The notes under the pieces: generated by a model
The model's database searches: none
What the model saw: the letters and a program-made list of their open reading frames with translations, nothing else
What the model was told of the DNA's origin: nothing
Shown here: piece after piece, positions 4,609 to 59,728 of the stretch
Position numbering within the stretch: position 1 is the stretch's first letter
Layout of the letters: every line of letters starts with the position of its first letter
Position numbers and translations under genes: made by a program
Assembly: GCA_965218285.1 (NCBI GenBank)
Contig: OZ244616.1
Span: forward strand, 1,472,133 to 1,536,132
Length of the DNA: 64,000 nucleotides
Source: Candidatus Poribacteria bacterium
Lineage (GTDB): Bacteria; Poribacteria; WGA-4E; WGA-3G
Reading direction: 5' to 3'

Positions 4609-4690
4609 TGGTAGTTACGTAAATTTGGGGACAACTCCGACATATAATCGTATATTTTTTTGATAATATTGATTTATACCCATATACATG

Positions 4691-8446: not shown

Positions 8447-8545
8447 GCTGCCATAAACATTTCATCCTTTGAATCAACATGAGTCCGTCAAATTCGCGTG
8501 TTAATTACTTGGACACTGTGGTAGGTGCGGTTTCCTAACCGCACC

Positions 8546-8833
8546 ATTAGCGTCAATTTAAGGAAATAAACCTATATTTTGGATATCTTAGCCCCAGCGG
8601 GGCGGAATGTGTATAGACCACGATCCATACCAAACTCAAGCCCCAGCGGGGCGAAAGGTGTATATGGGCACATGTTGTCAGACACCTGTCACCCCGCTGG
8701 GGTTCAAGAGACTGTTGGATACCGTTTTCTATGTACCTGTCGCACCGCTGGTGCTAAGATGTGATTTACCAAAGCTCGGGTAGGCGAAAGATGTATCAGA
8801 CGCACTAACGTTACGCACTAAATTGACGCCTAT
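8546..8833. mobile_element. MITE family B, shortened copy. TIRs ATTAGCGTCAATTTA / TAAATTGACGCCTAT, interior made of REP-like GCCCCAGCGGGGC hairpin units, flanked by a duplicated 22-bp palindromic target.
   Basis: Direct repeats GGTGCGGTTTCCTAACCGCACC lie at 8524-8545 and 8834-8855. Full-length 357-bp copies lie at 49168-49524 and 59260-59616. Confidence 0.75.
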
Positions 8834-9100
8834 GGTGCGGTTTCCTAACCGCACCTACCGCGTTGGGGACCCCTAATTGGAGTTGAAGTGTTAGTGCGGG
8901 GGATTTCTCCCCCGCAAGGAGGAATACCAACTCATAATGAATTGTTATTCGGGGGATATTATTAGTATGCCAAATCAACGTCAAACGTATATAACGTATA
9001 TTTGGCATTCGTCGCCTCTCCCTATGGCGAGATGTTATGTCTTTTGCAACATCGTCATTTACACAGAACCCAAGATGATCTTGGACCTTGCTCTACATTC

Positions 9101-10835: not shown

Positions 10836-11282
10836 TTTATCGAGTTTCGGTGTCAAAACCCAATGCTTTAGCTTTGGGATGTAGACACCGCCCTCTTGTA
10901 TTAGACCAAAACTTTTTCTTGACATAAAACACGATTCTTGCTATAATCTCTTTTCGTAACTCCACGGGTTGTGAGCAGGCGTTCTGGGTGCTACATACCG
11001 AGTGAACTCACGTAAAGTTGCGACACAAGCGGTAGAAGTCTTTGACACCAGATAGTTGCTGATGGAAGCTTAGAGTGTAATGGGAAAGAGTGGTAGGACA
11101 CCATCCCGAAAACAGCACTCTCAAAAATGTTCATAAGACACCTTCGGGTGTGCAGGCGGGGCATCGTCTGTTGGAGTAGAGGGTGTTAGACTTGCTTAGC
11201 AAGCAACCCTTGTTGATACCACAATCTACACAGCAGGTGGGACAAAAGAACCCCACTGCTTTAGCTGTGGGAGTATGTCAGA
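10836..11282 (+). mobile_element. 447-bp ORF-less element with IS200/IS605-like subterminal hairpins and an internal consensus sigma70 promoter (copy A, intergenic).
   Basis: Identical to 47313-47759 across the shared 447 bp as read. Left hairpin CCCAATGCTTTAGCTTTGGG at 10859-10878 and right hairpin CCCACTGCTTTAGCTGTGGG at 11252-11271 share the loop TGCTTTAGC. No ORF longer than 60 aa. Confidence 0.7.
10919..10947 (+). promoter_or_regulatory. Consensus sigma70 promoter inside the 447-bp element: TTGACA, 17 bp, TATAAT.
   Basis: TTGACA at 10919-10924, a 17-nt spacer, and TATAAT at 10942-10947. The same promoter lies at 47396-47424 in copy B. It would drive an about 330-nt non-coding transcript toward the right end of the element. 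Confidence 0.6.
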
Positions 11283-11414: not shown

Positions 11415-11549
11415 AACGTGAGTTTGATAAAAACAAGATGTCGGGCTTCTCGTAGGGGCGAGGTCTTCTCCCCCGTAGGGGTTAGGTTACCTAACCCCTA
11501 CGAAAATGTCCATTTATGTTTAGAATTTGCTATATATCAAACTCACGTT
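11415..11549. mobile_element. MITE family E, about 135 bp, with 15-bp TIRs AACGTGAGTTTGATA / TATCAAACTCACGTT (copy 1).
   Basis: Perfect TIRs, flanking ATTAT duplicated, internal hairpin CGTAGGGGTTAGGTTACCTAACCCCTACG. Confidence 0.75.
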
Positions 11550-11569
11550 ATTATAGGTTCAGCAAAGGC

Positions 11570-11640
11570 AGCCCCAGCGGGGCGAAAGGTGTATAGAAAC
11601 GCGGGTGAACAACCCTCTTAGCCCCAGCGGGGCGAAAGGT
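11570..11640 (+). repeat. REP-like doublet: two direct copies of AGCCCCAGCGGGGCGAAAGGTGT separated by 21 bp.
   Basis: The same unit builds the interior of MITE-B. A second stand-alone doublet lies at 18420-18500 followed by the same about 90-bp downstream sequence (..TAAGGTGTTTCC.TTGACC..AAAAATTGTCCAAAG..). Confidence 0.7.
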
Positions 11641-11733
11641 GTCCCAATAAATCTTATATTGATGTCTAAGGTGTTTCCATTGACCTTGACTATCACTCAA
11701 GAACTCTAAAAATTGTCCAAAGTATAGTATACT

Positions 11734-11866
11734 AACGTGAGTTTGATAAAACAAGATGTCGGGCTTCTCGTAGGGGCGAGGTCTTCTCGCCCGTAGGGGT
11801 TAGGTAACCTAACCCCTATGAAAATGTCCGTTTATGTTTAGAATTTGCTATATATCAAACTCACGT
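11734..11866. mobile_element. MITE family E, copy 2, in direct orientation 185 bp from copy 1.
   Basis: Same TIRs, TATACT duplicated at the flanks, a few point differences from copy 1. A REP doublet lies between the two copies at 11570-11640. Confidence 0.75.
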
Positions 11867-11932
11867 TTATACTAAGTTAAAAATTGTATTTTGTTAGAAA
11901 CCGTGGTTTTCACACTTGTATTTGTTAAACTT

Positions 11933-15409: not shown

Positions 15410-15505
15410 TATACCCAATTAACCCGATTTGTCTTATTTCCCGGCCAGTAGGTGCGGTTTCCTAACCGCACTTACCGATTGGAATCTCGTTAATTTGGTA
15501 TTATA
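15410..15505. mobile_element. MITE family C, about 96 bp, with TIRs TATACCCAATTAAC / GTTAATTTGGTATTATA and a central hairpin.
   Basis: TIRs at both ends. The central hairpin AGTAGGTGCGGTTTCCTAACCGCACTTACC is the same palindrome that is duplicated around the MITE-B copies at 8.5 and 59.3 kb. Other copies lie at 52753-52848 and, reverse-complemented, at 18595-18690. Confidence 0.65.
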
Positions 15506-18106: not shown

Positions 18107-18195
18107 TTATCGAACTTCGGTGTCAAAACCCAATCCTTTGAATCAACGCTGAATGCACGCATGGCATTCAGCGGGTTTGGGATGTAGACACTGCC
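18107..18195 (+). repeat. Partial copy of the left end of the 447-bp IS200/IS605-like element.
   Basis: TTTATCGAACTTCGGTGTCAAAACCCAAT...TTTGGGATGTAGACAC matches the first about 60 bp of the element at 10836. An extra internal hairpin GCTGAATGC...GCATTCAGC is present. It lies about 500 bp upstream of a TnpB C-terminal remnant. Confidence 0.5.
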
Positions 18196-18594
18196 TTCGT
18201 GTCCCAGACCAAAGCGTGGGACAGAGAAAAAACAGTTGAGATATTTTATAGGTTTTGTTATAATATCTACTAAAGTTTGGACAATTTGTGTGATATTCAG
18301 GCAGCCCTTTCAAGCCGTAAGGCGTGCTTTGGCTCGAAAATCTGTCTAATATTCTGCGATTTTGTTTCTTTAAGACAACTCACAGAAAAAGCGACTTCGG
18401 ATCCAGCAAACAGCAGCCCCAGCAGGGCGACAGGTGTATAGAAAACCAAGCCCCTCACGACATTCAAGCCCCAGCGGGGCGATAGGTGTATAGAAAATCT
18501 TATACGAATGCATAAGGTGTTTTCGTTGACCCAGCCTATTGAACGAGAATTCTTAAAAATTGTCCAAAGCTTAGTAATATCTATAGCATTGCTA

Positions 18595-18690
18595 GTAATA
18601 CCAAATTAACTTGATTCAAAGTTTTCTAATAGCGGTTAGCATTGCGAGGCACGGGGACCTCGCACTACAAATCCCGTTAATTGGGTATAA
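18595..18690. mobile_element. MITE family C copy, reverse orientation, with a different central hairpin (GCGAGGCACGGGGACCTCGC).
   Basis: Ends TAATACCAAATTAACTTGATTC ... CCGTTAATTGGGTATAAT are the reverse complement of the family C TIRs. Confidence 0.55.
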
Positions 18691-18699
18691 TGTCTTAAG

Positions 18700-19010: not shown

Positions 19011-21170
19011 ATGCTAATGAAGAAAAATATAATCTCAAAAAAGCAACAACCTACCGAAAAACGCGCTTTTACTCGACGTGATTTCCTTTCAACCAGTATG
19101 AAAGCTGGTGCTGCCGCTTTCACTACAAGTTTTTTACCAACACTTCACGCTTCTGCTGATGAACGATATAATGTCCTATTTATCATGGTTGATGATTTAA
19201 GTACTCTGCTTGGTTGCTATGGTCATCCAGAGATGCACACCCCTAACATTGACAAAATTGCTGATCAAGGCGTCGTCTTTGACCGGGCGTACTGCCAATA
19301 TCCACTTTGTGGCCCGTCACGAGCTTCGCTTCTGACTGGATTACGTCCTGACACAACGGGAATAATGGATAACTGGCCTAGTCCTGCAGATAGGTTACCG
19401 GGCATTACTATTCCTCAACATTTCAAAGATCAAGGTTATCACACACGCTCTGTCAGTAAAATTGCCCACTCGTGGTATGCATGGACAGATAGAGTTTCTT
19501 GGAGCAAACCGATATGGAAGCTGAGTTTTGAGGACGAGTATTTTGGTGCTAAACCAAGGGATTGGAAGATACTTGATGTTGCCGATGATGAACTCCGAGA
19601 TGGAAGAGCTGCCCGTGAGGCGGTAAAAGTGATGAATGAGATAAAAGAGTTGCCATTTTTTCTTGCCGTTGGTTTTGACAGGCCTCATACTCCCTACCAC
19701 GCGCCACGAAAATATTTCGATCTATATTCGCCAGAAGATTTCACCTTACCAACACATTCAAGTCTACCCGAAAATGCACCATTGTTCTCTATTTCTAATG
19801 AGTCGTTTAGGAATTCTGATGAGGTCACATTGCAATTTACGCATGCTTACGCTGCATGTATAAGTTATGTAGATGCTCAGGTTGGGTTATTGCTTGAACA
19901 GCTTGAGAATTTGGAGTTGGCTGAAAAGACAATCATCGTCCTGATGGGGGACCATGGCTATCACATCGGGGAGCATGCTCGGTGGCAAAAAGACACACTA
20001 TTTGAGGTAGGTGTGCGTTCCCCGTTGATTGTTAGCGTTCCCGGGCAGTCGCATGTTGGTGTCACAACAGATGCCCTCGTTGAACTCGTGGATATTTTTC
20101 CGACATTATGTGATGCATGCGAATTGCCGATTCCGAGCGAACTTGAAGGGCAAAGTTTTGTTCCGGTTATTGAAGAACCGACACGCCAGTGGAAATCTGC
20201 GGCGTTTAGCCAACTCAGACGGACGAATGCGGAAACTTGGTACAGGAGATATTCGCTATCATCTCTCACTGGGATTGAAATCACAGATAACAACAGTGTA
20301 GATGGTTACTCCATGCGCACTGATCGATATCGATACACCGAGTGGAGGGCATATTCTGAACATGGTGAGAAACTCGCCGATGTCGGTGTTGAACTCTACG
20401 ATTATCAGACTGATCCCGATGAAACCGTCAATATAGCGAATCTTCCGGAGAATGCAGAACTTGTCGTACAACTTAGTGAACAACTTCAATTGGGATGGCA
20501 ACATGCTTTGCCTGGAATGCAAGAAGGAAGCACTGCTGTTTCACCAAACTTTCCATGGGATATAAACGAGGATGGTATTGTGGATATTCAGGATCTGCTT
20601 CTCGTCTCGGAAAATTTTGGGATAGCAATTCAGGAATATCCTAAGGCTGACGTTAACCAAAATGGTAGCGTTGATATTATTGACCTCCTTTTAGTCGCAG
20701 CACATTTGGGTGAATCCAATAATCCATCAGCTCCGCTGGCGCACACCGAAATATTACCCGAACATTTTGACATTTTGCAGAAACGTCTTTCTGAAGCCCG
20801 TTTAGCCGATGATGGTTCTGCTCTTTTTCACAAGGGGATTTCGGTTTTAGAAACTCTGCTGAATGCTGCTATTCCAAAAAAGACTGTGTTACTGCCTAAC
20901 TATCCAAATCCTTTTAATCCAGAAACTTGGATACCCTATGATTTAGCACAGGATGCAGATGTAAAGATACACATCTATGATTTAAATGGCAAATCTATCC
21001 ATCAATTATCTCTTGGTTTCCAGACCGCTGGTACCTATCATTCTCAATCGCGTGCAGCGTATTGGGATGGAAAGAATTCTGCTGGAGAGTATGTTTCGAG
21101 CGGGGTCTATTTTTTTACACTATACGCTGGACAAATTCAAACTACACGCAAAATGGTTGTCAGAAAATAA
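19011..21170 (+). CDS. Formylglycine-dependent sulfatase with Tat-like signal, dockerin-like repeat pair and T9SS/FlgD-like C-terminal sorting domain.
   Basis: RRDFLSTSMKAGAAAF twin-arginine signal. Sulfatase signature CQYPLCGPSRASLLTG (C-x-P-x-R). Dockerin repeats DINEDGIVDIQDLLLV and DVNQNGSVDIIDLLLV. CTD LLPNYPNPFNPETWIPY...YWDGKNSAGEYVSSGVYFFTL. Confidence 0.85.
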   Translation: MLMKKNIISKKQQPTEKRAFTRRDFLSTSMKAGAAAFTTSFLPTLHASADERYNVLFIMVDDLSTLLGCYGHPEMHTPNIDKIADQGVVFDRAYCQYPLCGPSRASLLTGLRPDTTGIMDNWPSPADRLPGITIPQHFKDQGYHTRSVSKIAHSWYAWTDRVSWSKPIWKLSFEDEYFGAKPRDWKILDVADDELRDGRAAREAVKVMNEIKELPFFLAVGFDRPHTPYHAPRKYFDLYSPEDFTLPTHSSLPENAPLFSISNESFRNSDEVTLQFTHAYAACISYVDAQVGLLLEQLENLELAEKTIIVLMGDHGYHIGEHARWQKDTLFEVGVRSPLIVSVPGQSHVGVTTDALVELVDIFPTLCDACELPIPSELEGQSFVPVIEEPTRQWKSAAFSQLRRTNAETWYRRYSLSSLTGIEITDNNSVDGYSMRTDRYRYTEWRAYSEHGEKLADVGVELYDYQTDPDETVNIANLPENAELVVQLSEQLQLGWQHALPGMQEGSTAVSPNFPWDINEDGIVDIQDLLLVSENFGIAIQEYPKADVNQNGSVDIIDLLLVAAHLGESNNPSAPLAHTEILPEHFDILQKRLSEARLADDGSALFHKGISVLETLLNAAIPKKTVLLPNYPNPFNPETWIPYDLAQDADVKIHIYDLNGKSIHQLSLGFQTAGTYHSQSRAAYWDGKNSAGEYVSSGVYFFTLYAGQIQTTRKMVVRK

Positions 21171-23022: not shown

Positions 23023-25323
23023 TTGAAACTTTTCACATTTTCCGAATCAACTCGTACACAGTCCTCAAGCCGGAACTTGGGACTCACTCATCTCATCAGT
23101 CTAATTTTCACTGTGTTCATGCTTTTTATTACACCACACTGGATAGCAACTGCACAGACCGTCCAGATTCCGGACCCCAATCTCCGTGCTGCCCTTGAGT
23201 TAGCATTAGACAAAGAAGCAGGTGCCGACATCACTCAGGCGGAGATGGCAAGTTTGGAATCACTCCAAGCTAGCAAATGTCGCTTTTTGATGTTGTCGGA
23301 AATTGGACGGTGGGTGGCACACCGATGGGAATGTCAGTCTCCTAAAGATGGAGAGGATGCTCTTCGTGAAGCGTTGATGCTCAGTTTTGAATCCGGTATT
23401 CAAAATTTAACAGGTCTTGAGTTTGCTACCAATCTAACACACCTCTCTCTTAGTCTCAATCGTATATCAGATTTGTCTCCACTCAAAAATTTGATAAATT
23501 TGACACACCTCTCTCTTGGTCTCAATCGTATATCAGATTTGTCTTCACTCAAAAATTTGACAAATTTGACACACCTCTCTCTCAGATACAACCGTATATC
23601 AGATTTGTATCCACTCAAAAATTTGACAAATTTGATAGAATTGGATATTCAAGACAATCATATATCAGATTTATCATCACTCCAAGATTTGACAAATTTG
23701 ACACACCTCTTTCTTAGAGGAAACCGGATATCTGATGTGTCCCCACTCGAAGATTTGACAGAATTGATAATGCTAGATCTTCAACTCAACGTGATATCTG
23801 ATGTGTCTCGACTCAAAAATTTGATAAAACTGAGACACCTTGATATTGACAACAATGAAATATCTAATGTGTCTCCATTCGAAAATTTGATAAACGTGGC
23901 ATTCTTGGATATTTCCGATAACCGTATTTCAGATTTGTCTCCACTCAAAAATTTGACAAATTTGTCGATAGTGCTGGATATTGACGACAACCAAATTTCA
24001 GATTTGTCTCCACTCAAAAATTTGACAGAGCTGCGTAAACTGGACGCTGACGACAACCAAATTTCAGATTTGTCTCCACTCAAAAATTTGACAAATCTAA
24101 CATGGCTGGATATTGACGACAACCAAATTTCAGATTTGTCTCCACTCAAAAATTTGACAAGACTGACATACCTTGATCTTAACGCAAATCAGATATTTGA
24201 CGTGTCTCCACTTGAAAACTTGATAAATCTAACGGAGTTAGATCTTGACAAGAACGAGATATTTGATGTGTCACCACTCAAAAACTTGACAAATCTGACC
24301 GTTATAGATCTTCATAACAACAAAATATCAGATGTGTCACCACTCAAAAATATGACAAATCTAACAGAATTAGATATTGATGACAATGATATATCAGATG
24401 TGTCACCACTCAAAAACTTGATAAATCTCACGATACTTGACCTTGATGGCAACGAAATATCGGATGTGTCACCACTCAAAAACTTGATAAATCTGACAGA
24501 ACTTGATCTTCACGACAACGAGATATCGGATATATTGCCACTCAAAAACTTAATAAAACTAACAGTGTTAGATCTTAGCGAAAACCAGATAGCGGATTTT
24601 TCACCTATTGCCGGATTAATAGTGAATTTAGTTGAATATGATGCCAGCAACCAATCAGTTCCAACCTACAAACCTGAAGATGTGAACCGAGATGGCACTG
24701 TAAATATAGCAGATCTTGTTTTAGTTGCATCAAATTTTGCCGATCCTGATTTGGAGGCTCTTGCAGGTACAAACATCTATCCGGATGTCAATCATGATGG
24801 TGTTGTTAATCTGATAGACTTGCTCCTTGTTGCGGTAGAGATGGGTTCTGATACTGCAGCCCCCGCACTCAGCAAAAGTCAAGTTGAAACATCTAATCTT
24901 ACTACAGAAAACCTCGTGCAGTGGATTCGACTCGCCAAGAAGATTGATGTCAAAGAGCCGCGTCTCCTAAACGGCATTGCGATCTTAGAGCAACTCTTAG
25001 CACTTCTTAGCACTGTTGAGACATTGCCGAAAGCGACAGCACTGCTGGCAAACTATCCAAATCCGTTTAACCCTGAGACGTGGATACCGTATCAGTTGGC
25101 AAAACCTGCAAAGGTTTGTGTCTCAATTCATTCTACAGATGGGAAACTTGTTAGGATATTGGAGTTGGGGCAGTTGTCTGCAGGCATATATCACAGCAAG
25201 TCCCGCGCGGCATATTGGGATGGTCGGAATGATTTGGGTGAGTCTGTAGCAAGTGGAGTCTATTTCTATACGTTTACCGCAGATGATTTTAGTGCTACCA
25301 GAAAAATGTTCATCCGAAAATAA
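23023..25323 (+). CDS. Leucine-rich-repeat (internalin-like, about 22-aa repeat) surface protein with dockerin-like repeats and a T9SS-like CTD.
   Basis: More than 20 tandem repeats of the LSPLKNLTNLTxLDLxxNxISDVSP type. DVNRDGTVNIADLVLV and DVNHDGVVNLIDLLLV. C-terminal ANYPNPFNPETWIPYQL...YWDGRNDLGESVASGVYFYTF. Confidence 0.8.
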   Translation: MKLFTFSESTRTQSSSRNLGLTHLISLIFTVFMLFITPHWIATAQTVQIPDPNLRAALELALDKEAGADITQAEMASLESLQASKCRFLMLSEIGRWVAHRWECQSPKDGEDALREALMLSFESGIQNLTGLEFATNLTHLSLSLNRISDLSPLKNLINLTHLSLGLNRISDLSSLKNLTNLTHLSLRYNRISDLYPLKNLTNLIELDIQDNHISDLSSLQDLTNLTHLFLRGNRISDVSPLEDLTELIMLDLQLNVISDVSRLKNLIKLRHLDIDNNEISNVSPFENLINVAFLDISDNRISDLSPLKNLTNLSIVLDIDDNQISDLSPLKNLTELRKLDADDNQISDLSPLKNLTNLTWLDIDDNQISDLSPLKNLTRLTYLDLNANQIFDVSPLENLINLTELDLDKNEIFDVSPLKNLTNLTVIDLHNNKISDVSPLKNMTNLTELDIDDNDISDVSPLKNLINLTILDLDGNEISDVSPLKNLINLTELDLHDNEISDILPLKNLIKLTVLDLSENQIADFSPIAGLIVNLVEYDASNQSVPTYKPEDVNRDGTVNIADLVLVASNFADPDLEALAGTNIYPDVNHDGVVNLIDLLLVAVEMGSDTAAPALSKSQVETSNLTTENLVQWIRLAKKIDVKEPRLLNGIAILEQLLALLSTVETLPKATALLANYPNPFNPETWIPYQLAKPAKVCVSIHSTDGKLVRILELGQLSAGIYHSKSRAAYWDGRNDLGESVASGVYFYTFTADDFSATRKMFIRK

Positions 25324-25453
25324 TACCAAATCACTTAATCCATTAAGTTTGGATTTCTGCGTCTCGCGGTTTGTTAAGTTGAAATGTTCTCTTAGAAGAT
25401 CAATATCATTGATGCTTGTAAACGCGTTTTAGGCATGTATATCACGAGGGAAA

Positions 25454-28120
25454 ATGCGAATTTTAATATTGTCATTAGTTGTTTTTTGTTTGCTCCCTAC
25501 AGCGTGGAGTGAAATTCAATTTGAAGATGTCTCACATCAGGTTGGAATCACACGTATTGGTGAAAGTTGGGGAAATGCGTGGGGTGATTTTGACGGAGAC
25601 GGTTACCTTGATTTATGGGTTACTAACCATAAGCACAAACCCAGTCTTTATCGAAATAATGGAAACGGCACTTTTACCGATATAATTGACGAAGTATGGA
25701 ATGCATATCCTTTTGCGGACACACACGGTGTCGCATGGGCAGACTTTGATAATGACGGGGACCAAGATTTGATTGCCTTATGTGGCGGAGGTGGTGGGAC
25801 TAATCGGTCAAACATAACACATTATAATCACTTCTATGTCAATGAAAATGGTAAACTTATTGAGCGCGCTGCTGAATTCGGTATTGACATGCCGTTGCTG
25901 CGAAGTAGGGCACCCCTCTGGTTTGATTGGAACAAGGACGGACTACTTGACTTGCTTGTCACAGGAAAAACCCAAACAGACCAAACAGGAGTGCTTGTGG
26001 CTTCAACGATATTTGAACAAACCCAGGGAACATTTAAGGATGTAAATGCGGAATCAGGGTGCCACATTGAAAAAGATGCCGCATTAGCACAACTTGCTGA
26101 TGTTACCGGTGATGGAACTATGGAAATCTTTGTAGATGGTAGTCTATATCCAGCACATATATATGATACGTCAATTACCCCCTTTAATGATTTAGCTGCT
26201 ACACTTAATTTTCCTAAAGTCTATAGCGTGCAAGATGCAACGTTTGCCGATTTTAATGGTGATCTGGTCCCAGATGCGTTTTTGGCACGTGGGGTGTATA
26301 GATCCTTCATTGATACTTCGGAAGCAGAAACTTTGCGGAACTCAGTCGATCCGCTTGATCCTGAGGTTAATTTTTACAAAATACAAGTAAATGTAAAGAT
26401 TAACACTGGGGAGAAAGGGTTAAGTTTTAAGACAGATGGAATTGTCAAGTTTGAAGTTCATTCCGATTGGGCATCTCAACTCCACCACTTAGCAATCGGA
26501 AAGAATGCGCATAACGTGTATGTTTTTGATGGAGAATACGTCCCAACAGATCGCGAACGAAATGTTTCTTCCTTCACATTTGTGCTTGACCCCGCAGACC
26601 CAAAGGTTGTTGGGTTGGCAGATCGTCCGAAAAACGAGAAATGGAGAACTTATGTGGGGTATGACCCTGATTCAAACCGATGGACAGTATTATACCATAC
26701 AATGCCTCCTATTGACACGAATTGGACAGGATTTGAGGCTCATATATCTGCGAAAAACCCGATAGCAGAAGTTGAACCAATTAATTTCAGCGGCTTTGAT
26801 CTTTCCTATGAACCGAAATCAATACTTTGTATAACAACTCCACCTAACAATTTCCGGAGAATTAATTTTTCTGAGACAGTTGAAGCACGTTCCGTGGCAG
26901 CGGGGGATTTTGACAACGATATGGATGTAGACCTCTATATTGTTCGTTCAAATAGTGCTGCTAATCTGCCCAACCAACTTTATGAAAACCAAGGTGATGG
27001 TTCTTTCATTCAAGTTGCTGGAGCAGGCGGTGCAGAAGCAAACACAGAAGGGAAAGGAATGAGCGTTACGATGGGAGACTACGACATGGATGGTTACCTT
27101 GACCTTTTTGTTACGAATGGTAGAGGGATCTATCCATATAACAATGGTCCGGATCAACTCTACCGTAACATCAGCAGTGGCAATAATTGGATACAGATTG
27201 ATTTGGAGGGGAAAGTTTCAAATAGAGATGGAATCGGTGCGAGATTGTTCGCAACAACACCTGATGGAAAGACTCAGCTTCGCGAACGTAATGGAGGAAT
27301 CCACTGGTCTCAGCAAGACCAGAAACGTATCCATTTTGGGCTTGGACAGAATGAGGTGGTCAGTGAATTGATTATCAATTGGCCAAGCGGCATTGTTCAA
27401 AAGTTAAAGAATGTTGAGGTGAACCAAGTGTTGCGTGTAGTTGAAGATGGAATTCAAACGTTACTCACGGGTGATGTTAATATGGATGGACAAGTTGATA
27501 TTATTGATCTACTTGTAATTGTCGCTCATTTTGGAGAAAGCCCCCCTTCAAATTCAAAGTATGATACAAATAAAGATGGAAAAGTGGATCTTCAAGATGT
27601 CATTTTGGTAATTAAGAGTATTGAAGAAAACCAGAATGGTACTGCAGCACCACCCCAAACACCCATTCCCAAAATTAAAGCCACCGATATCTACTCCCTT
27701 TCAGATCATCACATTGCACTCCTCCACGCATTTTACGAAAAAATTGAAGAATTGTCTGATGATACTACACAAATATCAATAGTGAAACGTTTTTTAGAGA
27801 ATCTGTTGATGCCTGCTGATGGTCCTCTGAAAACGAAACTTTTCGCAAACTATCCTAACCCGTTTAATCCGGAGACATGGATTCCTTATCAACTCGCTGA
27901 GAATGCAGAAATTACCATACGTGTATATAACACTGCTGGTAAGACAGTGCGGACACTCTTCACTGGGCATCAAACGTCAGGATTTTATATCAATCGTGAG
28001 CGAGCCGCATATTGGGATGGCTCTAACGAATTTGGAGAAGCTGCCGCAAGCGGTCTATACTTTTACGAATTGTCCACGCCTACATCTAAACAGACGAGAA
28101 AATTAGTCATCATAAAATAA
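25454..28120 (+). CDS. CRTAC1/ASPIC-UnbV-type FG-GAP repeat protein with dockerin-like repeats and a T9SS-like CTD.
   Basis: N-terminus FEDVSHQVGITRIGESWGNAWGDFDGDGYLDLWVTNH. Repeated FG-GAP Ca-binding loops DxDxDG. GDVNMDGQVDIIDLLVIVAH. C-terminal ANYPNPFNPETWIPYQL...YWDGSNEFGEAAASGLYFYEL. Confidence 0.75.
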   Translation: MRILILSLVVFCLLPTAWSEIQFEDVSHQVGITRIGESWGNAWGDFDGDGYLDLWVTNHKHKPSLYRNNGNGTFTDIIDEVWNAYPFADTHGVAWADFDNDGDQDLIALCGGGGGTNRSNITHYNHFYVNENGKLIERAAEFGIDMPLLRSRAPLWFDWNKDGLLDLLVTGKTQTDQTGVLVASTIFEQTQGTFKDVNAESGCHIEKDAALAQLADVTGDGTMEIFVDGSLYPAHIYDTSITPFNDLAATLNFPKVYSVQDATFADFNGDLVPDAFLARGVYRSFIDTSEAETLRNSVDPLDPEVNFYKIQVNVKINTGEKGLSFKTDGIVKFEVHSDWASQLHHLAIGKNAHNVYVFDGEYVPTDRERNVSSFTFVLDPADPKVVGLADRPKNEKWRTYVGYDPDSNRWTVLYHTMPPIDTNWTGFEAHISAKNPIAEVEPINFSGFDLSYEPKSILCITTPPNNFRRINFSETVEARSVAAGDFDNDMDVDLYIVRSNSAANLPNQLYENQGDGSFIQVAGAGGAEANTEGKGMSVTMGDYDMDGYLDLFVTNGRGIYPYNNGPDQLYRNISSGNNWIQIDLEGKVSNRDGIGARLFATTPDGKTQLRERNGGIHWSQQDQKRIHFGLGQNEVVSELIINWPSGIVQKLKNVEVNQVLRVVEDGIQTLLTGDVNMDGQVDIIDLLVIVAHFGESPPSNSKYDTNKDGKVDLQDVILVIKSIEENQNGTAAPPQTPIPKIKATDIYSLSDHHIALLHAFYEKIEELSDDTTQISIVKRFLENLLMPADGPLKTKLFANYPNPFNPETWIPYQLAENAEITIRVYNTAGKTVRTLFTGHQTSGFYINRERAAYWDGSNEFGEAAASGLYFYELSTPTSKQTRKLVIIK

Positions 28121-38370: not shown

Positions 38371-40464
38371 ATGAAGCAAAAAATAATCTCACAAGCACAA
38401 GAACAATCTTCAAAAAATCGCTCTTTTACCCGACGTGATTTCCTTTCAACGAGTTTGAAAGCCGGTGCTGCTGCTGCTTTCACTACAAGTCTTTTACCGA
38501 CATTTAACGCTTCCGCTGATGAACGATATAATGTTCTATTTATCATGGTTGATGATTTACGTCCTCTGCTCGGTTGCTATGGTCATCCAGAAATGCATAC
38601 ACCTAACATTGATAGACTTGCCCAAAGGGGAACGCTCTTCAATCGTGCCTATTGTCAATATCCTCTCTGCAGCCCTTCCCGCACTTCAATGTTAACAGGT
38701 CTCAGACCAGATACAACCCGCGTTACAAATAATAGAGCCTTTTTTCGTCAGACTGCACCTAATACCGTTACGCTACCACAACATTTCAAAACTTACGGCT
38801 ACCATACACAATCGGTTGGTAGAGTATTCCATCTCCCAGAATTTCAGGACGATGCAAACTCTTGGAGTGTTCCATCATGGAGACCGAGGTGGAGACCCTT
38901 TGATCACGAGACGACTCCATCTTGGCAAGCACTTGAGGCAGAAGATGATGATCTTAGAGATGGCGAAACGGCAAAACGAACAGTTGAAGTGTTGGATAAG
39001 ATCAAAAACAAACAATTCTTTTTGACTATTGGATTTTATAAACCTCATTTACCCTACAACGCTCCAAAAAAGTATTTCGATTTATATGACATCGAAACCT
39101 TCAGTATACCTGACATTTTAGATGAATCCACAGCAGAGATAATACCACCCCATTGGAATGAAGTTAGACCTTTTGAAGATGTTCCATCAGGGGCAACACC
39201 GTTGACGTATGAAAAAATGTTGGAACTTATCCGCGCTTATGCTGCTGCAACAAGTTACACAGATGCGCAAATAGGACGGGTATTGGATCAACTTGATGCA
39301 CTTGGACTCACAGAAAATACAGTTATTGCTTTTTGTGGTGACCATGGATACCACCTTTCCGAAAACGGAACATGGGGCAAAAATATCATTTATGATGCGA
39401 CGTTACATTCACCTTTGATTGTCAGCATGCCCGGGCAAGGTACAATTGGCACTACAACAGATGCCCTTGTTGAGCTTGTTGATATTTTTCCTACATTTTG
39501 CGACGCATGTCAAATTCCAATTTTGGATGAATTGGAAGGATTTAGTATGGTTCCGGTCATTGAAGAACCTACACTCACGTGGAAAACAGCTGCTTTCAGT
39601 CAGTTCAAACAATCACGCTCCATCAGAACTGATCAATATAGATACACTGAAACTGGTAGACTTAAAGAACTTTATGATTACGGTACTAACACGAATTCTG
39701 AACAGAACATCGCTAATTTTCCTGAAAATGCAGATCTGGTTGCAAACCTCAGCGAACGCCTCCATGCTGGCTGGCAAGCAGCATTACCTGAAATCCCACC
39801 CCGTGTCCCTCATGCTCAAACGCTAACGTGGGACGTAAACAGTGATGGTGTTGTTGATATTCAAGATCTTCTTTTGGTTTCAAACAGTTTTGGGGCAGAT
39901 GTACTTGAAAATCCGAAAATAGATGTAAATAAAGATGGAACCGTTGATATTATCGATTTGCTTTTAGTCGCATCACATATAGGTGAACCCCGCAATGCAG
40001 CACCGAGTTTAAGTACACTCCCGCTTCAGTATGTTGACGACATTGAAGAATGGATTTCTGAAGCCCGTTTAGTTGATGATGGTTCTACCATTTTTCGCAA
40101 GGGAATTGCAAACTTAGAAACCTTGATAAATTCAGTTATACCAAAACAGAGCGTGCTTCTCCCCAACTTTCCAAACCCCTTTAATCCAGAGACATGGATA
40201 CCTTACGATTTGGCTGAAGATGCTGATGTCAATATCCACATCTACAATCTAAAAGGTGAATCTGTGAAACAACTTAGCATTGGCTTTCAAGCTGCTGGTA
40301 GTTATAGGACACAATCACGTGCAGCATTTTGGGATGGACGCAATTCTACTGGCGAACCTGTCGCCAGTGGAACCTATTTTTACGCATTGACAGCACGATA
40401 TAGAGATAACACCTTATCTCAAAACCCTCTTATAGCAACACGCCGAATGGTAATTGTAAAATAG
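38371..40464 (+). CDS. Formylglycine-dependent sulfatase with Tat signal, dockerin-like repeats and a T9SS-like CTD.
   Basis: RRDFLSTSLKAGAAAAF. CQYPLCSPSRTSMLTG. DVNSDGVVDIQDLLLV and DVNKDGTVDIIDLLLV. LLPNFPNPFNPETWIPY. The first about 200 nt are near-identical to the paralog at 19011, which suggests recent duplication or gene conversion. Confidence 0.85.
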   Translation: MKQKIISQAQEQSSKNRSFTRRDFLSTSLKAGAAAAFTTSLLPTFNASADERYNVLFIMVDDLRPLLGCYGHPEMHTPNIDRLAQRGTLFNRAYCQYPLCSPSRTSMLTGLRPDTTRVTNNRAFFRQTAPNTVTLPQHFKTYGYHTQSVGRVFHLPEFQDDANSWSVPSWRPRWRPFDHETTPSWQALEAEDDDLRDGETAKRTVEVLDKIKNKQFFLTIGFYKPHLPYNAPKKYFDLYDIETFSIPDILDESTAEIIPPHWNEVRPFEDVPSGATPLTYEKMLELIRAYAAATSYTDAQIGRVLDQLDALGLTENTVIAFCGDHGYHLSENGTWGKNIIYDATLHSPLIVSMPGQGTIGTTTDALVELVDIFPTFCDACQIPILDELEGFSMVPVIEEPTLTWKTAAFSQFKQSRSIRTDQYRYTETGRLKELYDYGTNTNSEQNIANFPENADLVANLSERLHAGWQAALPEIPPRVPHAQTLTWDVNSDGVVDIQDLLLVSNSFGADVLENPKIDVNKDGTVDIIDLLLVASHIGEPRNAAPSLSTLPLQYVDDIEEWISEARLVDDGSTIFRKGIANLETLINSVIPKQSVLLPNFPNPFNPETWIPYDLAEDADVNIHIYNLKGESVKQLSIGFQAAGSYRTQSRAAFWDGRNSTGEPVASGTYFYALTARYRDNTLSQNPLIATRRMVIVK

Positions 40465-40530: not shown

Positions 40531-42549
40531 GTGAAAAAAACAATAGAAAACCAGGTTATTCCACGTTCCTATACTCGGCGTGACTTTCTTTCAACGAGCC
40601 TCAAGGTTGGTGCGACTGCCTTTACAACAAGTTTGTTACCACGTCTAAATGCAAAAGCTGAAGGAAAGCATAATGTATTGTTCATGATTGTGGATGATTT
40701 GCGTCCTATGCTTGGTTGCTACGGCATTCCTGATATGCACACCTCAAACATTGACAGTTTAGCTGCACGTGGAACACTCTTCAATCGTGCCTATTGCCAA
40801 TACCCACTTTGTAATCCTTCTCGGGCTTCTATCCTAACAGGGTTGCGTCCGGAGACAACAGGAGTACACGACAATTCCGCAGATTATAAAATCACAGTGC
40901 CAGACGCGGTGGATGTGTACCAACATTTTATGGAACAAGGTTATAAAACATATACTGTAGGAAAAGTGGGGCACTATCCTGCCCCTTTTACTCATGGTCC
41001 ATCTTGGAATGCCCTTGATGTTTCAGACGACGAACTAAGTGATGGTAAAACTGCAAAACAGACAGAGGAACTTTTAGAAAATATTAAAGACCAACAATTT
41101 TTCTTAGCTGTTGGCTTCGACAAACCACATTTACCCTTACATGCCCCTCAAAAATATTTCGAATTATACAATCCAAATCCCTTTATATTACCCCCTACTT
41201 CAAGTTATCCACTTAATTCACCACCTGATGCCCACAACAAGATAGATTTATTTAGACTTTATCGGGATATTCCATCTGGTGACGAGCCTATTTCTGTTGA
41301 GAAAACATTAGAATTGATTCGCGCTTATGCGGCTTCAACAAGTTATATGGATGCACAAGTTGGTCGTGTCCTGCGTCAATTGGACACACTTGGGTTGACT
41401 AATAACACAGTTATTGTTTTCTGTGGTGATCACGGTTTTCATCTTGGTGAGCATGGGACATGGCGGAAAAATACACTTTTTGAGATTGGTGTTCGTTCAC
41501 CTTTACTTATCAGTGTTCCAGGACAACAGCCGTGCCAGACAAATTCCTTGGTAGAATTGGTAGACATCTATCCTACTTTGTGCGACGCATGTGAACTTCC
41601 AATTCCTTCACAGTTAGAAGGTTTAAGCTTAATGCCTTTAGTAGAAGAACCGACCCTCCCTTTGAAAAGTGCTGCTTTCAGTTATCTAACCCGAGCAGGA
41701 TCTAAATCCACTTCAATGCGTACCGAAAGATACCGATACACAGAATGGGGAAGGATAGGTAAATTCGGCAGTGAACTTTACGATTATCTTGATGATCCGA
41801 ATGAGACCGTTAATGTAGTCGATCTTCCAGAAAATGCAGAACTTGTTGAAGATCTAAGTAATCGGCTGCGTGCCGGTTGGAAAGAAGCAATGTCTAATGT
41901 TCAGGGACATATCCCAATTCCACATGCACTTCCTTGGGATATAAATAATGATGGGATTGTGGACATGCAAGACCTAATCCTCGTCTCAAACAGTTTTGAT
42001 GAAGAAACACTTGAATATCCGAAAGCAGATGTGAATAATGATGGAAATATTGATATTATTGATTTGCTCATAATAGCTGCACATCTTGGAGAATCCTGCA
42101 CCGCCTCAGCTCCGTCAACACCTTTATCTGTTTCCCCAAACCATCTTGACAGTATCGCAGAATGGCTCACTGAAGCCTACCAAGCAGATGATGGGTCCGA
42201 TGTCTATCGCCACGGGATTGTCAACTTAGAAGCTCTCTTTAATAACGTAGTCCCACAAAAAACTACTCTTCTACCGAACTTCCCAAATCCATTTAATCCG
42301 GAAACGTGGATACCTTACGACTTGGCACAGGATGCGAATGTGGACATCAAAATATATAATCTCAAGGGAGAAACTATCAGAGAACTCAAAATAGGATTCC
42401 AAAACGCGGGCACTTATCGCACCAAGGAACTGGCAGCATATTGGGATGGACGTAATTCAGCTGGTGAACCTGTCACAAGTGGGGTCTATTTTTATACCCT
42501 CTTTGCTGATCAGGTAAAAGCAACACGCCGAATGGTAATCCGCAAATAA
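40531..42549 (+). CDS. Formylglycine-dependent sulfatase with Tat signal, dockerin-like repeats and a T9SS-like CTD.
   Basis: RRDFLSTSLKVGATAF. CQYPLCNPSRASILTG. DINNDGIVDMQDLILV and DVNNDGNIDIIDLLII. LLPNFPNPFNPETWIPY. Confidence 0.85.
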   Translation: MKKTIENQVIPRSYTRRDFLSTSLKVGATAFTTSLLPRLNAKAEGKHNVLFMIVDDLRPMLGCYGIPDMHTSNIDSLAARGTLFNRAYCQYPLCNPSRASILTGLRPETTGVHDNSADYKITVPDAVDVYQHFMEQGYKTYTVGKVGHYPAPFTHGPSWNALDVSDDELSDGKTAKQTEELLENIKDQQFFLAVGFDKPHLPLHAPQKYFELYNPNPFILPPTSSYPLNSPPDAHNKIDLFRLYRDIPSGDEPISVEKTLELIRAYAASTSYMDAQVGRVLRQLDTLGLTNNTVIVFCGDHGFHLGEHGTWRKNTLFEIGVRSPLLISVPGQQPCQTNSLVELVDIYPTLCDACELPIPSQLEGLSLMPLVEEPTLPLKSAAFSYLTRAGSKSTSMRTERYRYTEWGRIGKFGSELYDYLDDPNETVNVVDLPENAELVEDLSNRLRAGWKEAMSNVQGHIPIPHALPWDINNDGIVDMQDLILVSNSFDEETLEYPKADVNNDGNIDIIDLLIIAAHLGESCTASAPSTPLSVSPNHLDSIAEWLTEAYQADDGSDVYRHGIVNLEALFNNVVPQKTTLLPNFPNPFNPETWIPYDLAQDANVDIKIYNLKGETIRELKIGFQNAGTYRTKELAAYWDGRNSAGEPVTSGVYFYTLFADQVKATRRMVIRK

Positions 42550-46678: not shown

Positions 46679-47870
46679 CTATCTGGTGGAAATTTGCCCA
46701 CGCATATAAGAACCTTCATCGGAAGCCAGAAACGTCAGCACTCTCGCAACACCAGCGGGATCACCCAAGGATTTCACCGCATTGGCAACGGCTTCATCCG
46801 GGTCTTTTCCATCAAGTTTTGCAGACTGCGCAATTTGTCCGAGTTTAAGCGGTGTAGCGAGTCCACCAGGGCATATCGTGTGTATGCGGATGTTAAGTGA
46901 AGCGACTTGGTTTTCTACTGTCATCACAAGACCGTTAACACCGCCTTTGCTTGAAGCGTAAGCGATTGATGAACTTCCACCGCGAATCCCCGCCCCTGAA
47001 GCAATGCAGAGGATAACACCCCCGCCACTATTTCCCATTATAGGCACAGCATGTTTGAGCGCAAAAAAAGTGCCTTTAAGGTTAACATCAATTACTGAAT
47101 CAAAAGTTGCCGCATCAAAATCTTCTATACGGACACTTGCTCCCTGCAAGATACCCGCACAAGTCACTAAAGTATCAATTCGACCATACGTATCTTCAGC
47201 AGCATGCATTAGATTGGAGACGTCGACTTCAGAAGTGACATCGGTGTAACAGAATTTAGCATCACCGCCATTTTTCGTTATTATTTTTAACGTCTCTTGT
47301 CCATCAAGTCCGTTTATCGAGTTTCGGTGTCAAAACCCAATGCTTTAGCTTTGGGATGTAGACACCGCCCTCTTGTATTAGACCAAAACTTTTTCTTGAC
47401 ATAAAACACGATTCTTGCTATAATCTCTTTTCGTAACTCCACGGGTTGTGAGCAGGCGTTCTGGGTGCTACATACCGAGTGAACTCACGTAAAGTTGCGA
47501 CACAAGCGGTAGAAGTCTTTGACACCAGATAGTTGCTGATGGAAGCTTAGAGTGTAATGGGAAAGAGTGGTAGGACACCATCCCGAAAACAGCACTCTCA
47601 AAAATGTTCATAAGACACCTTCGGGTGTGCAGGCGGGGCATCGTCTGTTGGAGTAGAGGGTGTTAGACTTGCTTAGCAAGCAACCCTTGTTGATACCACA
47701 ATCTACACAGCAGGTGGGACAAAAGAACCCCACTGCTTTAGCTGTGGGAGTATGTCAGATCTCCCATAACAACTTTAGCCCCTGCTTCAGCGTATGCAAG
47801 GGCAGTCGCAGCACCGATACCTGTTGCCGCACCAATTACCGCAACCTTATCTGAGAGTTGGATATTCACT
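46679..47870 (-). pseudogene. Short-chain dehydrogenase/reductase gene interrupted by a 447-bp element inserted after codon about 40.
   Basis: The N-terminal Rossmann segment VNIQLSDKVAVIGAATGIGAATALAYAEAGAKVVMGD is encoded at 47870-47760. The rest (GLDGQETLK...YASSKGG...) is encoded at 47312-46679. The catalytic YxxxK is read as YASSK. Precise removal of 47313-47759 restores one continuous in-frame ORF. Confidence 0.75.
47313..47759 (+). mobile_element. 447-bp IS200/IS605-like ORF-less element, copy B, inserted in the SDR gene in antisense orientation.
   Basis: Identical to 10836-11282 across the shared 447 bp as read. Carries the consensus promoter at 47396-47424. No target duplication, which is consistent with IS200/IS605-type insertion. 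Confidence 0.7.
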
Positions 47871-48927: not shown

Positions 48928-49081
48928 AATATTTACACCCGCTCACTAATCAGTTCTATGAAACCTCATATATAGACAATACACAACCGCATTGTTATGA
49001 TATTTTCGTCTGTTCTTAGGTTGGGTCCTTAAACTAAATGAGCAAATTTCGTGCCATTAAACTTTACACACCATCATCAAG

Positions 49082-49653
49082 CAGGGTTATTTAGTTTTAA
49101 GAATTATCAGTTGATGAGTGTTACTGATAGTTTATTTCGTAGGTCGGGTAGAGCGGTAGCGAAACCCATAGGCGTCAATTTAAGGAAATAAACCTATATT
49201 TTGGATATCTTAGCCCCAGCGGGGCGGAATGTGTATAGACCACGATCCATACCAAACTCAAGCCCCAGCGGGGCGAAAGGTGTATATGGGCACATGTTGT
49301 CAGACACCTGTCACCCCGCTGGGGTTCAAGAGACTGTTGGACACCGTTTTCTATATACCTGTCGCCCCGCTGGGGCTAAAGAGTTGTGGGTATCACTTTT
49401 TCTATACACCTGTCGCCCCGCTGGGGCTAAAGAGTTGTGGGTGCTTTCGTTGCTATAAACATATCGTCCCTACGGGACTAAAGAGGGTTTCTCGGACACG
49501 GAAAACCACTAAATTGACGCTTATGGGTAGAGCGGTAGCGAAACCCGACATGAACTAAACGTGTCGGGTTTCGCAAACTCTACCCAACGGACAGGTAGTT
49601 TATATAGAAATGTGAAAAAATATAGCAGAAAAACCGAAAACTAAATAACCCTG
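49082..49653. mobile_element. MITE family A, copy 2, with a 10-bp TSD CATCATCAAG, carrying a nested MITE family B insertion.
   Basis: TIRs CAGGGTTATTTAGTTTT / AAAACTAAATAACCCTG. CATCATCAAG at 49072-49081 and 49654-49663. The internal palindrome arm GGGTAGAGCGGTAGCGAAACCC is duplicated around the nested element. Confidence 0.8.
49168..49524 (+). mobile_element. MITE family B, full-length 357 bp, nested inside MITE-A. Interior is a tandem array of REP-like GCCCCAGCGGGGC hairpin units in both orientations.
   Basis: TIRs ATAGGCGTCAATTTA / TAAATTGACGCTTAT. A 22-bp direct repeat GGGTAGAGCGGTAGCGAAACCC flanks it at 49146-49167 and 49525-49546. Two about 40-bp tandem units TATACACCTGTCGCCCCGCTGGGGCTAAAGAGTTGTGGGT are present. 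The ORFs 49201-49458 and 49229-49558 from the ORF track are artefacts of this repeat. Confidence 0.8.
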
Positions 49654-49738
49654 CATCATCAAGAAAAAACTTGCAATATCCAAAAATATTTGGTAGAATT
49701 ATAATGAATTCGTTTCATATCAGGAGGAGATATACCAA

Positions 49739-52621: not shown

Positions 52622-52752
52622 AATTATAACTGCTCCTTCTGTTTGGACAAGCGTATATCTAATCAGATTAATTCAAGCAACCTTACATGACACGCTAATT
52701 TATTTTCTGGGTGCATGTCTTTTCGATTGACAATCGCAACTCTTTGCGTTAT

Positions 52753-52848
52753 TATACCCAATTAACCCGATTTGTAGTGTGAGGTCCCCGTGCCTCACAA
52801 TGCCGACTGTATCCGAAGACGTCGAATCAAGTTAATTTGGTATTATAC
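52753..52848. mobile_element. MITE family C copy, immediately upstream of the MazG-like gene.
   Basis: TTATACCCAATTAACCCGATTTGT ... GAATCAAGTTAATTTGGTATTATA with central hairpin TGTGAGGTCCCCGTGCCTCACA. Its right end supplies a TATTATA -10-like box 15 nt upstream of the MazG RBS. Confidence 0.6.
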
Positions 52849-58951: not shown

Positions 58952-59259
58952 TCAATGTTCAATGTATACATCTACAATCTCCCGTACCGATGATGAATTT
59001 ACAACACAAAAAATATTGGGAGATATAACAATTCTTTGGTCCCCGTAAGATGTGCTAAGAGATGAAAACTTATGAGATATGGTAACCAAATAATATCTTT
59101 TGAATTTCAGAATTACCCTGTTTTAAACATTAATCTTCTTAATTATACCTTAAAATACACCAAATTGCAACTATACCTGTGCTAAAGGCAGAGCCATTCA
59201 ATTTCCATTTTCGGTCTGGCTTTACCCGGATCCGGTAGATGTGGTTTCCTAACCGCACC

Positions 59260-59616
59260 ATAGGCGTCAATTTAGTGGTTTTCCGTGTCCGAGAAACCCT
59301 CTTTAGTCCCGTAGGGACGATATGTTTATAGCAACGAAAGCACCCACAACTCTTTAGCCCCAGCGGGGCGACAGGTGTATAGAAAAAGTGATACCCACAA
59401 CTCTTTAGCCCCAGCGAGGCGACAGGTATATAGAAAACGGTGTCCAACAGTCTCTTGAACCCCAGCGGGGTGACAGGTGTCTGACAACATGTGCCCATAT
59501 ACACCTTTCGCCCCGCTGGGGCTTGAGTTTGGTATGGATCGTGGTCTATACACATTCCGCCCCGCTGGGGCTAAGATATCCAAAATATAGGTTTATTTCC
59601 TTAAATTGACGCCTAT
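59260..59616 (-). mobile_element. MITE family B, full-length copy in inverse orientation relative to 49168-49524.
   Basis: Same 357 bp with a handful of point differences. Flanked by 20-22-bp direct repeats TGTGGTTTCCTAACCGCACC / GATGCGGTTTCCTAACCGCACC. The ORF-track ORFs 59139-59555 and 59326-59583 are artefacts. Confidence 0.8.
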
Positions 59617-59728
59617 GATGCGGTTTCCTAACCGCACCTTCCAGGCAGCAGGTTCTTAGCGCGTAACTCTTTTCTCAAATTGATACTGATGGGTTGAACA
59701 ACGGTTAACTTAGATAGTGAAGTGAGAA

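Follow-up and report, generated by a model that had tools for sequence, protein, structure and literature searches.

A stretch of 64,000 nucleotides from a Candidatus Poribacteria bacterium, a sponge symbiont (assembly GCA_965218285.1, contig OZ244616.1, positions 1,472,133 to 1,536,132; hereafter the window) carries several families of miniature inverted-repeat transposable elements (MITEs), two of which, MITE-A and MITE-B, are nested, with B inside A. A sequence-only reading had placed a MITE-B inside the palindrome of a MITE-A, each with its own target duplication, and the coordinates and sequences of this nesting were all confirmed. Its further statement that the other two MITE-B copies are flanked by a different duplicated palindrome, which is vacant in the MITE-C element at 15410-15505, also held. 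We consider it very probable that the MITE-B family consists of non-autonomous elements derived by deletion from a Poribacteria insertion sequence (IS) of the IS4 family, 1.45-1.49 kb in length, with a target site duplication (TSD) of about 20 bp and a palindromic target.

MITE-A is delimited by the perfect 17-bp terminal inverted repeat (TIR) CAGGGYTATTTAGTTTT, found at 4691/4892 and 49082/49653 (four matches against a chance expectation of 0.52), and the left part of the filled copy at 49082 is 90% identical to the copy at 4691 (Table 1). The TIR of MITE-B, ATAGGCGTCAATTTA, occurs as three pairs in the window (8546/8833, 49168/49524 and 59260/59616) which span 288-357 bp from TIR to TIR. The nested MITE-B sits in the left arm of the MITE-A palindrome and has the 22-mer GGGTAGAGCGGTAGCGAAACCC on both sides (49146-49167 and 49525-49546), and the empty MITE-A contains this 22-mer once per arm, at 4755-4776 (+) and 4797-4818 (-). 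The remaining two copies, at 8546 and 59260, are bordered by GGTGCGGTTTCCTAACCGCACC, which stands unaccompanied at 15451-15472; the chance expectation for these flanking 22-mers, estimated from shuffles, was 0.00. The 20-bp TSD of the inverted copy lies at 59239-59258 and 59618-59637 and has one mismatch.

The two 357-bp copies of MITE-B (49168 and 59260) are 99.4% identical, which probably reflects recent movement. All three copies in the window are intergenic and lack an open reading frame (ORF). With TIRs and a duplication as in the IS, small size, multiple copies, intergenic position and no transposase ORF, MITE-B has the features by which MITEs are recognised. Its interior is built of 51-bp hairpin units resembling repetitive extragenic palindromes (REP-like units, GCCCCAGCGGGGCG-AAGGTGTATAG), which are also present outside MITE-B in the window, and it is unrelated to the interior of the full-length IS.

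Table 1. Positions of MITE-A, MITE-B and MITE-C copies and of their duplicated targets in the window.
Feature	Position	Strand	Remarks
MITE-A, filled copy, 572 bp, hosting MITE-B	49082-49653	+	17-bp TIRs 49082-49098, 49637-49653
MITE-A, empty copy, 202 bp	4691-4892	+	9-bp TSD ATATACATG at 4682-4690, 4893-4901
TSD of filled MITE-A, left, CATCATCAAG (10 bp)	49072-49081	.	direct reading of sequence
TSD of filled MITE-A, right, CATCATCAAG (10 bp)	49654-49663	.	direct reading of sequence
MITE-B inside MITE-A, 359 bp including terminal C/G	49167-49525	+	ends CATAGGCGTCAATTTAAGGA, CATAAGCGTCAATTTAGTGG
TSD of nested MITE-B, left 20 bp, GGTAGAGCGGTAGCGAAACC	49147-49166	.	apparent 22-mer 49146-49167
TSD of nested MITE-B, right 20 bp	49526-49545	.	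apparent 22-mer 49525-49546
MITE-B copy, 290 bp, in REP-like hairpin	8545-8834	+	20-bp TSD 8525-8544, 8835-8854
MITE-B copy, 359 bp, same hairpin type as 8545 copy	59259-59617	-	inverted relative to other two
Vacant MITE-B target, left arm of MITE-A palindrome, GGGTAGAGCGATAGCGAAACCC	4755-4776	+	paralogous empty site
MITE-C copy, core is vacant hairpin GGTGCGGTTTCCTAACCGCACT (15451-15472)	15410-15505	+	
MITE-C copy, same TIRs, different core, without GGTGCGG hairpin	52751-52847	+	
MITE-C, third copy, core unlike that of 15410-15505	18596-18691	-	

Census, full-length partners and length of the duplication

The census was based on a scan for the MITE-B TIR in one genome per species, which gave at least 105 blocks of up to 8 kb and is to be read as a sample; about three quarters of the listed loci come from Candidatus Poribacteria metagenome-assembled genomes (MAGs). 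MITE-B and another MITE of the window matched the MAG OZ250160.1 at 96-99%. When TIRs were paired across the window and the listed loci, 62 elements had flanks that could be used, and the counts reported below refer to these. Members of the MITE-B family range from 105 to 658 bp in the listed loci. Direct flanking repeats were found in 42 of the 62 pairs, with apparent lengths of 20 bp (1 copy), 21 bp (12), 22 bp (28) and 23 bp (1), so that the distribution is sharp, with 40 of the 42 copies at 21-22 bp and a mode of 22. These flanks are specific to each copy, as at least 18 unrelated non-hairpin sequences occur among them. A-type MITEs without a B segment are present at 4691-4892 in the window and in two further loci (L071 3286-3423 and L082 443-705), which bears out the earlier view that the B segment is an insertion and not a fixed part of MITE-A. 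The idea that the flanks are part of the element was rejected, both by their copy-specific sequences and by single-copy empty sites, in agreement with that view.

A search for autonomous partners had been proposed for both families; one was found for MITE-B, and none for MITE-A among the A-type TIR pairs of the census loci and a metagenome scan, all of which are 140-700 bp long. Full-length partners of MITE-B lie in three loci (L095 708-2193, L036 6393-7839 and L020 1885-3352), are 1447-1486 bp long with B-type TIRs and flanks, and each encode a single DDE transposase of 429-442 amino acids (aa). The three proteins match the Pfam model PF01609 DDE_Tnp_1 with E-values of 1e-22 to 1e-24 (80-85 bits, cut-off 23) and the NCBIfam model NF033592 transpos_IS4_1 with 196-212 bits (cut-off 115); the NCBIfam models matched were of the IS4, IS1634, IS701 and IS982 types, and IS4_1 alone was above its cut-off. 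Residues D109, D181 and E314 of the L036 protein are invariant, and their spacings of 72 and 133 fall within the IS4 range D(60-110)D(100-150)E. Of the Y(2)R(3)E(6)K signature, the R, E and K residues do not vary (RWQ[IV]ELxFKxxK). The Y position is occupied by A or I in Poribacteria and by L in Herpetosiphon; Chlorohelix, where a 20-bp repeat is also made, has Y there. The sole relative of solved structure was the Tn5 transposase, through a weak profile match at the YREK region. Just inside the TIR the two ends of the IS are distinct (…TTTAAGGA versus …TTTAGTGnTTTT), and MITE-B has one of each. Poribacterial transposase homologs at 58% identity are associated with the same TIR and the same targets.

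The L095 copy interrupts a gene resembling SF2 helicases. Deletion of the IS together with exactly 22 bp gives an uninterrupted ORF of 686 aa that reads through …DEGVDVPSTQTAYILASSSNPKEFIQRRGRILRK…, and the other deletion lengths tested gave ORFs of 623 aa or less. In L036 the IS is inserted in the hairpin of a MITE-C-like element, and the genome also has a paralog of this element (L101) in which the hairpin is vacant.

A 22-bp repeat taken at face value was nevertheless rejected, because the outer base of each 22-mer is the terminal C or G of the element. Mismatches between paired flanking 22-mers affect the outermost base in 11 and 10 of the 42 copies on the respective sides, and three or fewer at inner positions. 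In L015, five vacant units of an array of REP-like hairpins read TGTTGACG…, whereas the right-hand copy beside the insert begins with GGTTGACG…. The L046 empty site and the L069 right-hand copy both end in …T, and the left-hand copy next to the TIR ends in …C; comparison of L083 with L100 gave the same pattern, the base adjoining the TIR not being derived from the target. From the outermost-base mismatches and these three independent comparisons with paralogous empty sites it follows that the terminal C and G belong to the element and that the TSD is 20 bp. The element therefore ends in 5'-CATAGGCGTCAATTTA…TAAATTGACGCCTATG-3' (5'-CAT...ATG-3') with 16-bp TIRs, and the true duplication is about 20 bp (19-21), with 19 bp in the apparent-21 class. 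The original estimate of about 20-22 bp was therefore right about the unusual length of the duplication and wrong about its exact value, which is 20 and not 22 bp.

Two other origins of these repeats were weighed. The identical flanks on either side of each copy, the recurrence of one hairpin at many copies and the filling of the MITE-B interior with REP-like units could suggest that the element includes the 22-bp flanks, or that these are att-like cores of a hairpin-recognising site-specific recombination of the IS200/IS605, integron attC or REP/RAYT type. We give this explanation almost no credence and count it as refuted by the census, since the flanks vary by copy and are often unrelated, single-copy empty sites exist and an ORF is restored once the IS and one flank are removed. 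Hairpin-dependent single-strand transposons (IS200/IS605, REP/RAYT and PATE) have neither TIRs nor a TSD, use a Y1 (HUH) transposase and are strand-specific, whereas the elements described here have classical TIRs and duplications, insert without bias in orientation and have autonomous copies that encode only a DDE transposase of the IS4 type. Alternatively, a short ordinary duplication could have been extended secondarily by gene conversion or homologous recombination among hairpin copies, and the non-matching hairpin variants in 20 of the 62 pairs do show recombination among copies. This is very improbable as the source of the long repeats, however, because it cannot yield perfect repeats of 20-22 bp at unique targets (L095, L085, L028, L007 and L113) and because the lengths are too sharply distributed.

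Two larger elements were also seen in the census. A 1406-bp element in L049 (3657-5062) has B-type TIRs and a 22-bp flank, contains no transposase ORF and is filled with repeated units. In L207 (238-1783) a full-length IS variant is flanked by the opposite arms of an A-type palindrome with no direct repeat, which suggests an inversion or a recombination between two insertions.

Target choice and mechanism

The target motif is palindromic, roughly T-N-G^G-K-K ... M-M-C^C-N-A, with ^ at either limit of the duplicated segment, and its GGTG...CACC half-sites (G^GTG...CAC^C) lie about two helical turns apart. The preference is also visible at targets that are not hairpins, where the flanking base is G in 69%, the first duplicated base G in 92% and the next T/G in 97%, followed by G/T, with T at -2 in 72%. 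Since the target mostly has a G before and a C after the duplicated segment, the palindromic motif of 22 bp is made whole again on either side by the terminal C and G of the element. With the full target rebuilt on both sides of each insertion, tandem arrays of the form target-MITE-target-MITE-target can arise, and these were found in five loci (L026, L082, L054, L111 and L112).

Palindromic targets make up 24 of the 42, mainly variants of the GGTGCGGTT-loop-AACCGCACC hairpin, and REP-like hairpins and A-palindrome arms recur as targets across several genomes (L013, L014 and L054). The other 18 (43%), among them GGTTATAATAACAAAACTATCC, GGTATAATGTCCGTTTAACACC and GGGTACTAGGCACATCAACACC, are not palindromic, and their end stems do not exceed 5 bp. 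Relative to the asymmetric loop of the hairpin the orientation of the insert is unbiased (6:3 and 5:4). A symmetric protein complex that acts on duplex DNA should behave in this way, a mechanism that uses single-strand hairpins should not, and strand-specific hairpin targeting was rejected on this ground. GG..CC ends as a sufficient signal were likewise rejected, as the window contains only three insertions against 248 correctly spaced sites of this kind, and the perfect 21-bp GG..CC hairpins of the MITE-D elements (11478-11498 and 11796-11816) are unoccupied.

We propose that the elements move by cut-and-paste, as in IS231A, Tn5 and Tn10, and that MITE-B would be mobilised in trans. A symmetric transposase multimer would read the two inverted GGTG half-sites and attach both 3' ends to phosphates separated by about 20 bp. 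This distance corresponds to two helical turns, where one is usual for the family, and gap repair would then duplicate the 20 bp. The abundant REP-like hairpins and the arms of the MITE-A palindrome have both half-sites at the right spacing and would therefore be hot spots, which could account for the nesting of B in A and of B in C. Insertion is guided by the symmetry of the target sequence, and the earlier claim that MITE-B targets stem-loops is better expressed as a preference for a palindromic motif: the over-use of hairpins stands, and 43% of the targets are not hairpins.

Several points weigh against this interpretation. Hairpins are strongly over-used, not only in the census but also in the window, where two of the three C-type hairpin sites are occupied, and DNA structure or cruciform extrusion may contribute at such targets; as 43% of the targets cannot form a hairpin, extrusion is not required. 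Later recombination is needed to explain the 20 pairs without a clean repeat, most of which either belong to nested or tandem arrangements or have a different hairpin variant at each end. An autonomous copy is absent from the window itself, the staggered cut is read from sequence scars alone, and a relative with a duplication of about 20 bp may already be catalogued in ISfinder.

The majority of palindromic targets and the occupied C-type hairpins would also fit insertion directed by structure, in which active sites of ordinary spacing attack the base of an extruded cruciform or hairpin and the whole palindrome of 21-22 bp is duplicated. At hairpin targets the length of the duplication follows the size of the hairpin, loops of 3 nt going with 21 bp and loops of 4 nt with 22 bp. 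We nonetheless regard structure-directed insertion as unlikely, given the 18 targets with end stems of at most 5 bp, among them those of the autonomous IS in the helicase gene of L095 and of the Herpetosiphon llansteffanensis copy in a glycosyltransferase gene. At non-hairpin sites the length of 19-22 bp is unchanged and the preference for the half-sites persists, and the perfect hairpins of MITE-D remain vacant. Insertion guided by a palindromic motif is thus preferred, and the hairpin-directed mechanism that had been offered as an option is not supported in view of the DDE partner, the targets that cannot form a hairpin and the unbiased orientation.

Relatives and known systems

The nearest annotated relatives are found on plasmids of Chloroflexota, at 34% protein identity to the Poribacteria transposase. 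The element of Herpetosiphon aurantiacus pHAU01 has the ends ATAGGCATCAACCTTA and a perfect 21-bp flanking repeat, and that of Chlorohelix allophototropha has the ends CATGGTCGTCAATTTAA and a perfect 20-bp flanking repeat, GGGTGCTAAAACCAGTGCCC. The copy inside the glycosyltransferase gene of H. llansteffanensis ends in CATG…CATG with a 19-bp flanking repeat, and two metagenomic relatives have flanking repeats of 21-23 bp. Repeats of 19-23 bp, seen with transposases either 34% identical to the Poribacteria protein or homologous to that of Herpetosiphon, make the long duplication a property of a clade. Homologs of the transposase number thousands, all named only by the generic term "IS4 family transposase", and the closest protein relatives carry no ISfinder element name. 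A literature search found no paper on IS4-family elements with repeats of about 20-22 bp, nor on IS or MITEs of Poribacteria.

The DDE_Tnp_1 domain, the in-range D-D-E spacing and the R(3)E(6)K residues are shared with the IS4 family (IS4, IS10/Tn10 and IS50/Tn5). In that family, however, the duplication is 7-13 bp in every subgroup, and a length of "about one helix turn" is a hallmark (PMC2266710, Table 1), whereas the true duplication here is about 20 bp and that of the relatives 19-23 bp.

The closest parallels are with IS231. The ends of the IS231 and ISH8 subgroups follow the pattern CAT-------AA--TAA (PMC2266710). The sequence CATAGGCGTCAATTTAA, in which the terminal C is fixed by the empty-site comparison, agrees with it at positions 1-3 (CAT), 11-12 (AA) and 15-17 (TAA). 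IS231A makes an 11-bp TSD with the motif GGGNNNNNCCC (PMC2577343, Table 1); it resembles the present elements in having a single-ORF DDE transposase of the kind matched by the NCBIfam IS4_1 model, a palindromic target bounded by G-rich and C-rich half-sites and a tendency to insert into other mobile elements. Non-autonomous derivatives of IS231 (MIC231 and MITEs) are moved in trans (PMC6199540). In L037 (1438-1671), a B-family MITE has entered a second B-family element at its terminal repeat. The target, GGTGATCCTAAAATYGACACC, overlaps ...AAATTGACACCTAT, and the insertion recalls the preference of IS231A for transposon ends.

The differences from IS231 are nonetheless considerable. Duplications of 10-12 bp of GGG(N)5CCC characterise the subgroup, against 20 bp here, and the half-sites are one further helical turn apart than in IS231A. 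Identity to the IS231-like transposases of Bacillus and Clostridium is only 27-28%, where values within the IS231 subgroup are often above 50%. Between the second D and the E, IS231-like proteins contain a stretch of 16 aa that is missing from the Poribacteria transposase, and the proteins of Poribacteria and Herpetosiphon have another residue in place of the Y of YREK. IS231 has its hosts in the Bacillus cereus group, the present elements theirs in Poribacteria and Chloroflexota. IS231 copies on Bacillus and Clostridium plasmids had right flanks (GGGACGGCCCC and GGGTACTACCCC) that fit GGG(N)5-6CCC and gave no clean repeat pairs, so the IS231 target consensus was taken from PMC2577343.

Other systems offer partial precedents. 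Subgroups of the IS1202 family have direct repeats of 5-6, 15-17 or 27-28 bp (bioRxiv 10.1101/2022.12.17.520857) and are thus an example of clades that differ by steps of about one helical turn and have fixed, long duplications, although the transposase family is a different one and the proteins described here match only IS4-type models. The IS4-related IS1634 and IS1549 make direct repeats of 8-514 bp depending on the copy (PMC2266710), in contrast to the length found here, which is fixed within +/-1-2 bp, and the IS1634 model gave 29-39 bits against a cut-off of 100. The P element has a palindromic target motif that is restored by the ends of its TIRs (PMC2577343). The staggered-cut palindromic target model proposed for it (Linheiro & Bergman 2008) agrees with the present elements in a motif wider than the duplication and in the lack of strand bias; the motif of about 22-26 bp, the 20-bp staggered cut, the complete restoration on both sides and the tandem MITE arrays set these elements apart from it.

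Other repeats of the window and biological meaning

About 18 bp outside the left TIR of MITE-A are similar in the two copies (4673-4690 and 49063-49081, TTTAYACMCAT...), and 49049-49072 reads as the motif GGTGTGTAAAGTTT...CAC on the other strand, a recurrent target of the B family in other genomes (L039, L066 and L041). MITE-A may have a target preference for this motif, or its true left boundary may lie further out. In the MAG CBDCOJ, three A-type MITEs at different sites (L018 3713-4133, L021 5337-5780 and L065 4478-4994), each with its own 9-bp TSD, contain three different B-family MITEs (181, 204 and 275 bp), all in the second internal hairpin, and the first internal hairpin is unoccupied in all three. 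This pattern may reflect a hot spot or an exchange of B interiors.

The hairpins had also been described as building blocks of other repeat families. This is true of the core of the MITE-C at 15410-15505, while the other two MITE-C copies have a different core, so that the hairpin is a variable and not a constant component of MITE-C. MITE-D (about 135 bp, TIR AACGTGAGTTTGATA) has a 21-bp GG..CC hairpin core, GGGGTTAGGTTACCTAACCCC, and occurs at 11415-11555 and 11734-11867; the two copies are 318 bp apart and enclose two free REP-like units. In L082, a MITE-D is nested immediately inside the TIR of the A-type MITE at 443-705. The REP-like unit GCCCCAGCGGGGCG(A/G)NAGGTGTATAG, the same as those filling the interior of MITE-B, occurs 14 times in the window, where none is expected by chance, and forms free-standing pairs about 50 bp apart at 11571-11648 and 18416-18495. 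Its conserved tail begins with GGTG, the half-site of the transposase, and in L015 a B element interrupts a 50-bp tandem array of such units.

Further repeats lie elsewhere in the window. A 447-bp repeat is 100% identical between 10836-11282 and 47313-47759, with a shorter related segment at 18176-18234. Large paralogous genes (19011-21170, 38371-40464 and 40531-42549, together with 25027-25327 and 27473-28065) have repeated DNA segments in common, and their translations, inspected by eye, appear to contain motifs resembling dockerin-type (DVNxDGxVDIxDL) and C-terminal sorting-type (YPNPFNPETWIPY) sequences. The ORF at 23023-25323 contains about 12 tandem coding repeats of 66 bp (23390-24616). 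No Rfam family was matched across the whole window.

What is new here is an IS4-family branch, MITEs included, whose duplications are 20 bp long and whose palindromic target is restored by the insertion itself. The length of the duplication mirrors the geometry of the complex between transposase and target and is therefore treated as a constant at the level of the family and used in IS classification, which is why a well-populated IS4 branch with a fixed 20 bp matters. On balance we favour the view, with less assurance than for the origin of MITE-B, that the elements belong to a large uncatalogued clade of the IS4 family, spread over Poribacteria, Herpetosiphon, Chlorohelix and metagenomes, whose sites of strand transfer are two helical turns apart and which builds self-extending arrays. 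If so, target capture would have a geometry unlike that of Tn5 and Tn10, for instance because the synaptic complex is wider or the target DNA is strongly bent or wrapped, and the occurrence of one and two helical turns within one fold would be a natural comparison for how the target is measured by DDE transposases. With its long and fairly specific palindromic target, the transposase could also serve as a tool.

There are practical consequences for genome annotation as well, since pipelines that seek repeats of 7-13 bp will misplace the ends of such elements. For the organisms themselves, each insertion would double its own hot spot, and repeat-rich genomes could in this way build self-extending MITE arrays with a single short palindrome between the elements. 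The layered repeats of Poribacteria genomes, from the nesting of MITEs within MITEs to tandem arrays, would thereby be explained.

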